Shown here: positions 56,968 through 58,164 of the stretch, one piece after another | Layout: each line of letters starts with the position of its first letter | Numbering within the stretch: the stretch's first letter is position 1 | Assembly: GCA_965228735.1 (NCBI GenBank) | Contig: OZ245838.1 | Span: 5,440,001 to 5,504,000 of the forward strand | Direction: 5' to 3' | DNA from: Planctomycetota bacterium | Lineage (GTDB): Bacteria > Planctomycetota > UBA1135 > UBA2386 | DNA: 64,000 nt | Made by a program: the position numbers and the translations under genes | The notes under the pieces: model-generated | What the model was told of the DNA's origin: nothing | Databases searched by the model: none | The model's input: the letters and a program-made list of their open reading frames with translations, nothing else

Positions 56968-58164
56968 ATGAAGCGACCTGTCCTGCTCGCCGTGCTCGCA
57001 AGCGCCAGTCTGGCCATCGCGCAGCGCGCCCCACTGCCCGGCCTCCCGGTCGTGCCACCGCCCGTTTCCCACCCCGCCCTGATCGCGCAGCCGTTGATCG
57101 ACAGCGGCGGCAGCCAGATGTCGGCGCCCGCCGCCCCGAAGGCTCCCAAGGCCAAGGGCAACGGCAAGAAGGCCCCGCAGAAGAAGGGCCGCAGCAAGCC
57201 CCTGATCGACCCCGACACCGTCGGCGTCAAGATCAAGGGCCGCGCGCTCAAGGCCGCGGTCAAGAAGGTCGCGAAGCTGCCGTGGCACAGCAGCAAGGAG
57301 TTCGAGGACATGCGCGCGGAGTCGGCCGCGACCGGCAAGCCGATCCTGTTCCTGCAGGCGCTCGGCGACATCGACGGCTTTGCTTGAAGCGCGCTGCAGA
57401 GCCTGCGGGGCGTGACCCTGCCGAACAAGAAGGTGATGCAGATGCTCGAGAACGAGTTCGTTCTCGGCGCCGCCAACATCGAACGGGCCGAGTTCGTCGG
57501 CACTTCGCACGGCTACAAGACGACCGACTGCGCCGTCGGCACGACCAACGGCGCTGGTGGTCGTAACGTGCAGCTGTGCGTGCTCGCCGCGGACAGCACC
57601 GTGCTGCACGTGCTGCCGGGCTTCTGGCACGCCGAGGACCTGATCGACGAGCTCGAGTTCAGCAAGGAGCTCAACGCGCTCTACCTCGACCCCGACCGTT
57701 CGCGCGCCGAGAAGCAGCGCCTGTTCCAGGCGATGCACCGGAGCAAGATCCGTCGCATCTCGGCCGAGACGCGCGCCCGCAGCCGGTGGCAGGGCTTCGA
57801 CGTCTGGGCCGAGGTCGCCCGCGCGCAGCGTGAGGGCGGCAGCGATACCGTGCGCCTCGACGAGGAGGGCAAGCCCGTGCGCACGGCCGGCGGTCAGATC
57901 GCGATCCGGCCGGTGTGCGAGCTCGTGCACCACCGCATGGCGCAGCGGCCGTTCCTCGCGTTCGACGACTTCGACATCGAGGAGTTCGTCGACTACGGCC
58001 GGCCCTACTACGACAACAACGCCCGGCACGACGACGGCAAGACGTTCCGTGCCGCCGAGCGCAACCAGAAGAAGCGCATGCGCGCGGAGCAGAAGCAGCG
58101 TGAGCTGGAGCTTCGCGAGCAGAAGCGCCAGGCGCGCGGCGGCAAGGCCGCGCGTCGCTGGTAG
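56968..58164 (+). CDS. Exported thioredoxin-fold (SELENON-like) protein with in-frame UGA (candidate selenocysteine at residue 140)
   Basis: AGGAG ribosome-binding site and signal peptide. ORFs 56968-57387 and 57412-58164 are in frame across TGA 57385-57387. Readthrough LPW...ESAATGKPILFLQALGDIDGFA-U-SALQSLRGVTLPNKKVMQMLENEFV places the UGA at the redox position of a Trx fold. Confidence 0.75.
57405..57421 (+). promoter_or_regulatory. Candidate bacterial SECIS hairpin
   Basis: GCGGGG-CGUGA-CCCUGC, loop starting 23 nt after the UGA. An alternative stem (57394-57408) is also possible. Confidence 0.45.

Follow-up and report, generated by a model that had tools for sequence, protein, structure and literature searches.

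Two same-frame ORFs on the forward strand of the window (the whole 64,000-nt stretch of DNA analysed here) are parted by a single TGA, as the earlier note had described. The frame from 56968 to 58164 (+) contains this TGA (57385-57387, codon 140) as its one internal stop and ends in TAG; under translation table 11 it is cut into ORFs of 139 and 250 amino acids. A Shine-Dalgarno-like AGGAG (56958-56962, +) lies 5 nt before the ATG. Third-position GC is 0.93 before the TGA, 1.0 from the TGA to a GTG at 57412-57414 that would start the second ORF, and 0.94 thereafter, which bears out the statement that coding-type codons run on through the stop. The note's further statement that the second ORF has no ribosome-binding site holds for the GTG, which has only GGGG closely upstream, but not absolutely: AGGTGAT precedes Met159, an occurrence that we judge to be chance. 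Both neighbours lie on the other strand, which leaves the gene by itself on its own: the divergent one (56078-56813, -) may be an enoyl-CoA hydratase, and the convergent one (58246-61062, -) a YfhO-type membrane protein.

Contigs from four of four runs (four studies; two runs may be the source of the window) span the TGA with no change there, and the TGA is therefore no assembly error. One strain carries six coding differences, all at third positions and all in the half downstream of the TGA; as read from the sequence, all six would be synonymous.

Homologues were found in 35 of the 151 genomes of the order with the window protein as query, in 53 of the 91 genomes of the family (taxon) with a homologue as query, and in 70 of 401 sampled Planctomycetota genomes with a family profile (E 1e-10; 38 matches below 1e-60). 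Named homologue records belong to Planctomycetota or to unclassified MAGs. Among 75 distinct genes, drawn from 94 loci by dropping 19 duplicates and the unmatched locus L222, the codon at the column of the window TGA is TGA in 72, TGC in two and TCG in one, and never TAA or TAG. This is far beyond chance. At the protein level, the 150 cluster representatives divide into 124 whose match lies wholly downstream of the column, five that stop at residue 139 and 21 that cross it, where 15 have Cys, two Ala, two Trp, one Ser and one Pro; 74 further proteins comprise 61 that begin behind the column and 13 that span it with Cys (10) or Ser (3). Homologues thus carry a conserved TGA or mostly Cys, the close Cys forms at 44-48% identity, and the variable non-Cys residues named beforehand as a possible refutation do occur in some homologues, which counts against the reading. 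The databases carry the family cut at the UGA, 'hypothetical' where named, as had been predicted for standard annotation of the window gene. Where the column holds Ser, Ala or Pro, the full-length relatives (L044, P0022, P0026, P0048, P0155 and P0157) may be non-catalytic forms. Tandem TGA-bearing relatives were also seen in G321, G336, G388, G401, G476 and G501.

The strongest evidence for a selenoprotein is a feature absent from the earlier note, a bacterial SECIS at 57405-57421 (+). Its 6-bp stem (57405-57410 with 57416-57421) closes a 5-nt loop (57411-57415) with GU at loop letters 2-3, starts 23 nt after the UGA and has an energy of -9.9 kcal/mol; the would-be GTG start falls within the loop. 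These values, with G second in the loop, satisfy the consensus in section 5 of PMC13188914 (stem of 4-16 bp, loop of 3-9 nt with G among the first two letters, 16-37 nt from the UGA, at most -7.5 kcal/mol). Numbered from the T of the TGA, nt 21-26 pair with nt 32-37 around the 5-nt loop. Across 38 distinct genes, pairing holds in 98.2% of 228 cells, with compensatory change in 10, three of the six pairs never vary, and neither any of 500 shuffles nor any slid register equals the observed pairing. A second subfamily (23 genes) has a shifted register, 21-26 with 33-38, in which 138 of 138 cells are paired.

The hairpin is tied to the TGA codon. A perfect 6-bp helix is present in 70 of 72 TGA genes, and GU occupies nt 28-29 in all 72; the three genes with a Cys or Ser codon retain three of the six pairs, lack the GU and never form the perfect helix (0/3). 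The Arg at +7 is encoded by CGG, AGG or AGA in 72 of 72 TGA genes and by CGC in three of three non-TGA genes, CGC and CGT accounting for 1163 of 1796 other Arg codons. At L206 (G530:C256:59366-61590) a Sec gene and a Cys-codon paralogue stand in tandem, and the hairpin is kept in the Sec copy and lost in the Cys copy. The single sequence is unremarkable: the stability of the region is no better than that of shuffles (z -1.09), and at minimum energy a competing hairpin forms, whose arm at nt +2 to +26 would be expected to be covered by a ribosome on the UGA. The case for the SECIS therefore rests on covariation.

The source genome (a single contig of 7.19 Mb, 93% complete) encodes selA, selB and selD, all over cut-offs, and tRNA-Sec, the machinery that the earlier note proposed to look for; selD has its own in-frame TGA. 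The genes selA and selD are adjacent, with selB and tRNA-Sec elsewhere (G000:C1:121367-123694, 1542467-1544335 and 2825088-2825186). The selA and selB genes and nine other GTPase matches are free of internal stops, and TGA is therefore not in general use as a sense codon. Among genomes that carry the family, a selB match came up in 60 of the 61 searched (31 strong phylum-profile matches and, from the order search, 30 of its 34 other genomes, the four weakest left out) against 290 of 401 in the phylum; the sole exception, where no selB match was found, is G129 (92% complete, 290 contigs). This co-occurrence is only mild support, because selB is near-universal in the order itself and kin are not independent. 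What appear to be two 'hypothetical' genes almost certainly form a single gene with an internal UGA read as selenocysteine, and frame, TGA column, SECIS, sel machinery and Cys homologues agree on the 398-residue selenoprotein first suggested by the earlier note.

The protein begins with a predicted cleavable signal peptide (residues 1-18, 56968-57021, +; basic start, hydrophobic core, A-x-A then Gln). Of 39 distinct homologous ORFs, 31 score positive by a hydropathy heuristic (several of the misses have uncertain starts), in keeping with the signal peptide claimed earlier. A Pro/Lys-rich, low-confidence linker follows (residues 19 to about 80, 57022-57207, +; pLDDT 49-77 in blocks). In the predicted model, residues about 96-240 (57253-57687, +) form a thioredoxin fold with a long pre-Sec loop and a long insert (171-200), and its structural neighbours are of the DsbH/AGR/DsbD type, not GPx/Prx. 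The UGA (57385-57387, +) would be Sec140, where the active-site helix begins, in the position of the first, attacking Cys of CxxC; model, column and Cys homologues thus favour the redox-site placement made in the earlier note. The partner Cys at +3 is absent: Leu stands there in the window protein, and Leu, Gly or Ala across the aligned family. Asn200 (57565-57567, +), which ends a conserved TTNGAGxRNxQ motif, occupies the cis-Pro column of thioredoxin and SELENON: 42 of 46 rows show Asn there, and the residue aligns with the Pro in SELENON FPV (placed by alignment, not coordinates). Cys188 in the long insert (57529-57531, +) is not conserved and is a candidate optional resolving Cys: of 39 homologues, 21 have a Cys between +37 and +49 relative to Sec, and eight have no other Cys at all. 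A family-specific helical C-terminal domain with invariant Arg, Glu, Asp, His and Tyr residues (57688-58047, +), for which no clear PDB match was found, precedes a long basic C-terminal helix in the model (58048-58161, +). The window protein (P0001) gave no match in Pfam or NCBIfam, and no metal-binding motif was seen in it.

We suggest, with moderate confidence and guided by the model, that the product is an exported single-selenol thiol reductase acting in the periplasm. By analogy with established bacterial Sec decoding, SelB-GTP-Sec-tRNA would, we have hardly any doubt, bind the GU loop and insert Sec140. Cleavage after Ala18 and export through the Sec translocon are predicted and very probable. 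Sec140 would then occupy the nucleophilic CxxC position with no +3 partner, and its selenolate could attack an oxidized Cys of a client (a disulfide, mixed disulfide or sulfenic acid), the periplasmic client perhaps being chosen by the conserved insert and the C-terminal domain. The resulting selenenylsulfide may be resolved by an outside thiol, a DsbD-type donor or the optional loop Cys. The same chemistry is ascribed to SELENON in the oxidizing ER lumen, an electron-relaying reductase according to PMC8148124. The replacement by Asn of the cis-Pro typical of thiol-disulfide exchangers counts against a reductase, and a neighbourhood comparison, itself noisy, revealed no conserved redox-partner neighbour.

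That Asn is one argument for a periplasmic peroxidase, in which the selenol would reduce H2O2 or organic peroxides in the manner of GPx, aided by Asn200 and conserved polar residues. Glutathione peroxidases carry a catalytic Asn at the cis-Pro place, and in local hhalign N200 falls on the WNF-motif Asn of two GPx sequences. The absent CxxC partner and a variable loop Cys resembling a resolving Cys fit as well, as does the genomic pattern: PF00255 finds no GPx in the source genome, and 20 of 31 searched genomes pass its cut-off. However, the alignment to GPx lacks significance (probability 0.18, E 0.33; two of 16 loci gave sequences), Pfam gives no GSHPx family match, which leaves the Asn as a positional match only, and the neighbours of the model lie outside GPx/Prx. 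We consider a peroxidase unlikely.

We are somewhat more doubtful still of a role without redox turnover, in which the Sec protein would bind or sense a ligand, be it a small molecule, a metal or selenium, within a cleft that the conserved C-terminal domain helps to form. The many invariant polar residues outside the thioredoxin core, the persistence of full-length paralogues with Ser, Ala or Pro in place of Sec and the missing cis-Pro would suit such a role; the lack of a visible metal-binding motif does not, and interchange of Sec and Cys at a nucleophilic position is a usual mark of catalytic redox sites. It is scarcely credible that the TGA truly ends translation (two genes, a pseudogene or an error) or is read as Trp or Cys by another route, since the many representatives confined to one side of the column and the two proteins with Trp there are outweighed by the lack of TAA and TAG, a SECIS tied to the TGA codon, a modelled fold that the split would cut at its active site, uninterrupted selA, selB and GTPase genes and the agreement of all four runs.

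Returning to the selenol reductase, SELENON is among the known proteins closest to it, and the claim that the protein is SELENON-like holds for the thioredoxin domain, at the level of the family, and fails for the rest of the molecule. With hhalign the family matches the SELENON thioredoxin domain over 110-130 columns at a probability of 95.5 (animal) and 96.7 (bacterial); core profiles give 98.7 and a score of 96 for SELENON against 92.5 and a score of 47 for a DUF255 control profile built from 20 of 28 loci. The family HMM places 21 of 21 SELENON rows at 21-36 bits, whereas 22 of the 24 Thioredoxin_7 matches in the genome and six DUF255 rows stay at or below 17 bits, the other two matches being TGA paralogues. 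The reverse search, SELENON HMM against the window protein, is near background (13.8 bits, E 0.97, rank 3 in the genome). In a 64-row tree with 15 family loci sampled, the family, SELENON and other long-loop groups fall on one side (91/97, not starred), and AU tests reject no alternative topology (p 0.49 and 0.10).

In both proteins the thioredoxin domain has a lengthened GxLD loop ahead of Sec, followed by x5-L-R, and both belong to an oxidizing compartment (predicted for the window protein). The window protein lacks the membrane anchor, EF-hand and central domain of SELENON and has its own insert and C-terminal domain instead. No EF-hand match was found for it in Pfam, where SELENON itself gives weak EF-hand matches; the central domain, common to animal and bacterial SELENON, reaches a probability of 0.06-0.16, and the model has no room for it. 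The SCUG/CU motif is also absent: the window protein reads Phe-Ala-Sec-Ser, with Ala-Sec-Ser against Cys-Sec-Gly in SELENON and Asn against its cis-Pro, and a Cys at -2 occurs in one homologue. A short-motif metagenome scan returned 68 stretches, which are animal SELENON transcripts or exons (as borne out by named homologues, the human one at 44% among them), four bacterial-type loci and some chance matches. The four (L077, L092, L103 and L121) are intronless full-length SELENON-like genes with GC of 0.55-0.61, the central domain, SCUG and a SECIS-type hairpin, likely bacterial in origin, and they group with animal SELENON at 100/100. A doctoral thesis reportedly deals with a SELENON homologue of Poribacteria. 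Despite the aligned thioredoxin domains, it is extremely improbable that the window gene is the true bacterial orthologue of SELENON, a proposal largely refuted by the domain comparison and by these separate full-length genes; on sequence grounds the family is probably a distant cousin.

The hairpins extend the comparison. In eukaryotic SELENON-type genes nt 10-25 pair with nt 33-48 in 25 of 26 distinct sequences (89% of 400 cells, 27 compensatory), L108, which has no SRE hairpin, being left out of the count; L108:173-1942 is SELENON-like, with a signal-peptide-like start and a long C-terminal extension. The animal SELENON SRE lies on the same axis as the window SECIS, with an invariant G23-U35 pair common to both, and the hairpin of the bacterial SELENON-like genes lies on the axis of the second subfamily. 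Among bacteria the common axis reflects SelB geometry; SelB is absent in animals, and the SRE axis may therefore be a relic, although the shared L-R-x3-L peptide could also predispose to it. PMC4561486 proposes an origin of the SRE from a bacterial SECIS for SPS genes, and PMC7016017 places SelN among metazoan additions. We speculate, giving the idea rather less than even credence, that the Planctomycetota family and its long-loop sisters are the radiation that yielded the SELENON catalytic domain, and that the animal SRE is a fossil bacterial SECIS. If true, this would provide a second lineage after SPS for such an origin, and soluble, bacterial, naturally Cys-substituted models of the chemistry of SELENON, a myopathy protein with few known substrates and no solved structure among the PDB matches. 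Through the link to SELENON, the natural Cys forms offer proteins expressible without Sec machinery.

The source genome holds ten further TGA-split thioredoxin-fold genes, a large hidden selenoproteome. One is a paralogue (G000:C1:2545818-2547080, +; TGA at 2546238) that has a Cys-Sec motif and, at the corresponding position, a hairpin; it is the genome's best SELENON-HMM match (E 1e-7) and closer to SELENON than the window gene. The other nine are split at the active site (G000:C1 TGAs 3235945+, 4263499-, 4375233+, 4855623-, 4985410-, 6694255-, 6929513+, 7087946- and 7165651-).

The open-access literature search found no paper on the family or on a bacterial SELENON. In PMC4807772, Table S9 lists two split 'thiol-disulfide isomerase-like thioredoxin' candidates and one hypothetical candidate in a planctomycete, which are possible kin of the window family. 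BSepDB (PMC13326102) is presented as a collection of previously reported selenoprotein families. By names, motifs and domain identifiers, none of the 119 families in Table 1 of PMC13188914 (2026) is SELENON-like or has the motif, and the NCBIfam selenoprotein families gave a best match of E 0.005 for any of 18 homologues and none for P0001, no cut-off being passed. The family adds a widespread Planctomycetota selenoprotein, cut in two by databases, with an unusual active site (a lone Sec, Asn for cis-Pro) and an extra domain with no clear structural match; its SECIS, where codon choice, compensatory change and register shift are tied to the UGA, is a clean test case for SelB recognition. From Thioredoxin_7, DUF255 (Thioredox_DsbH), AGR2-ERp18 and DsbD-gamma the window protein differs in having no CxxC, a pre-Sec loop five residues longer, Sec and the extra domain. 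VPGUxxT (NF041382/NF041383), Trx7/PDZ (NF041199), SaoT and Sec.1/Sec.2 share with it Sec at a thioredoxin active site and a UGA with a downstream SECIS, but their motifs differ from its own. The family is thus set apart from those listed by names, motifs and domains, and is apparently uncatalogued.
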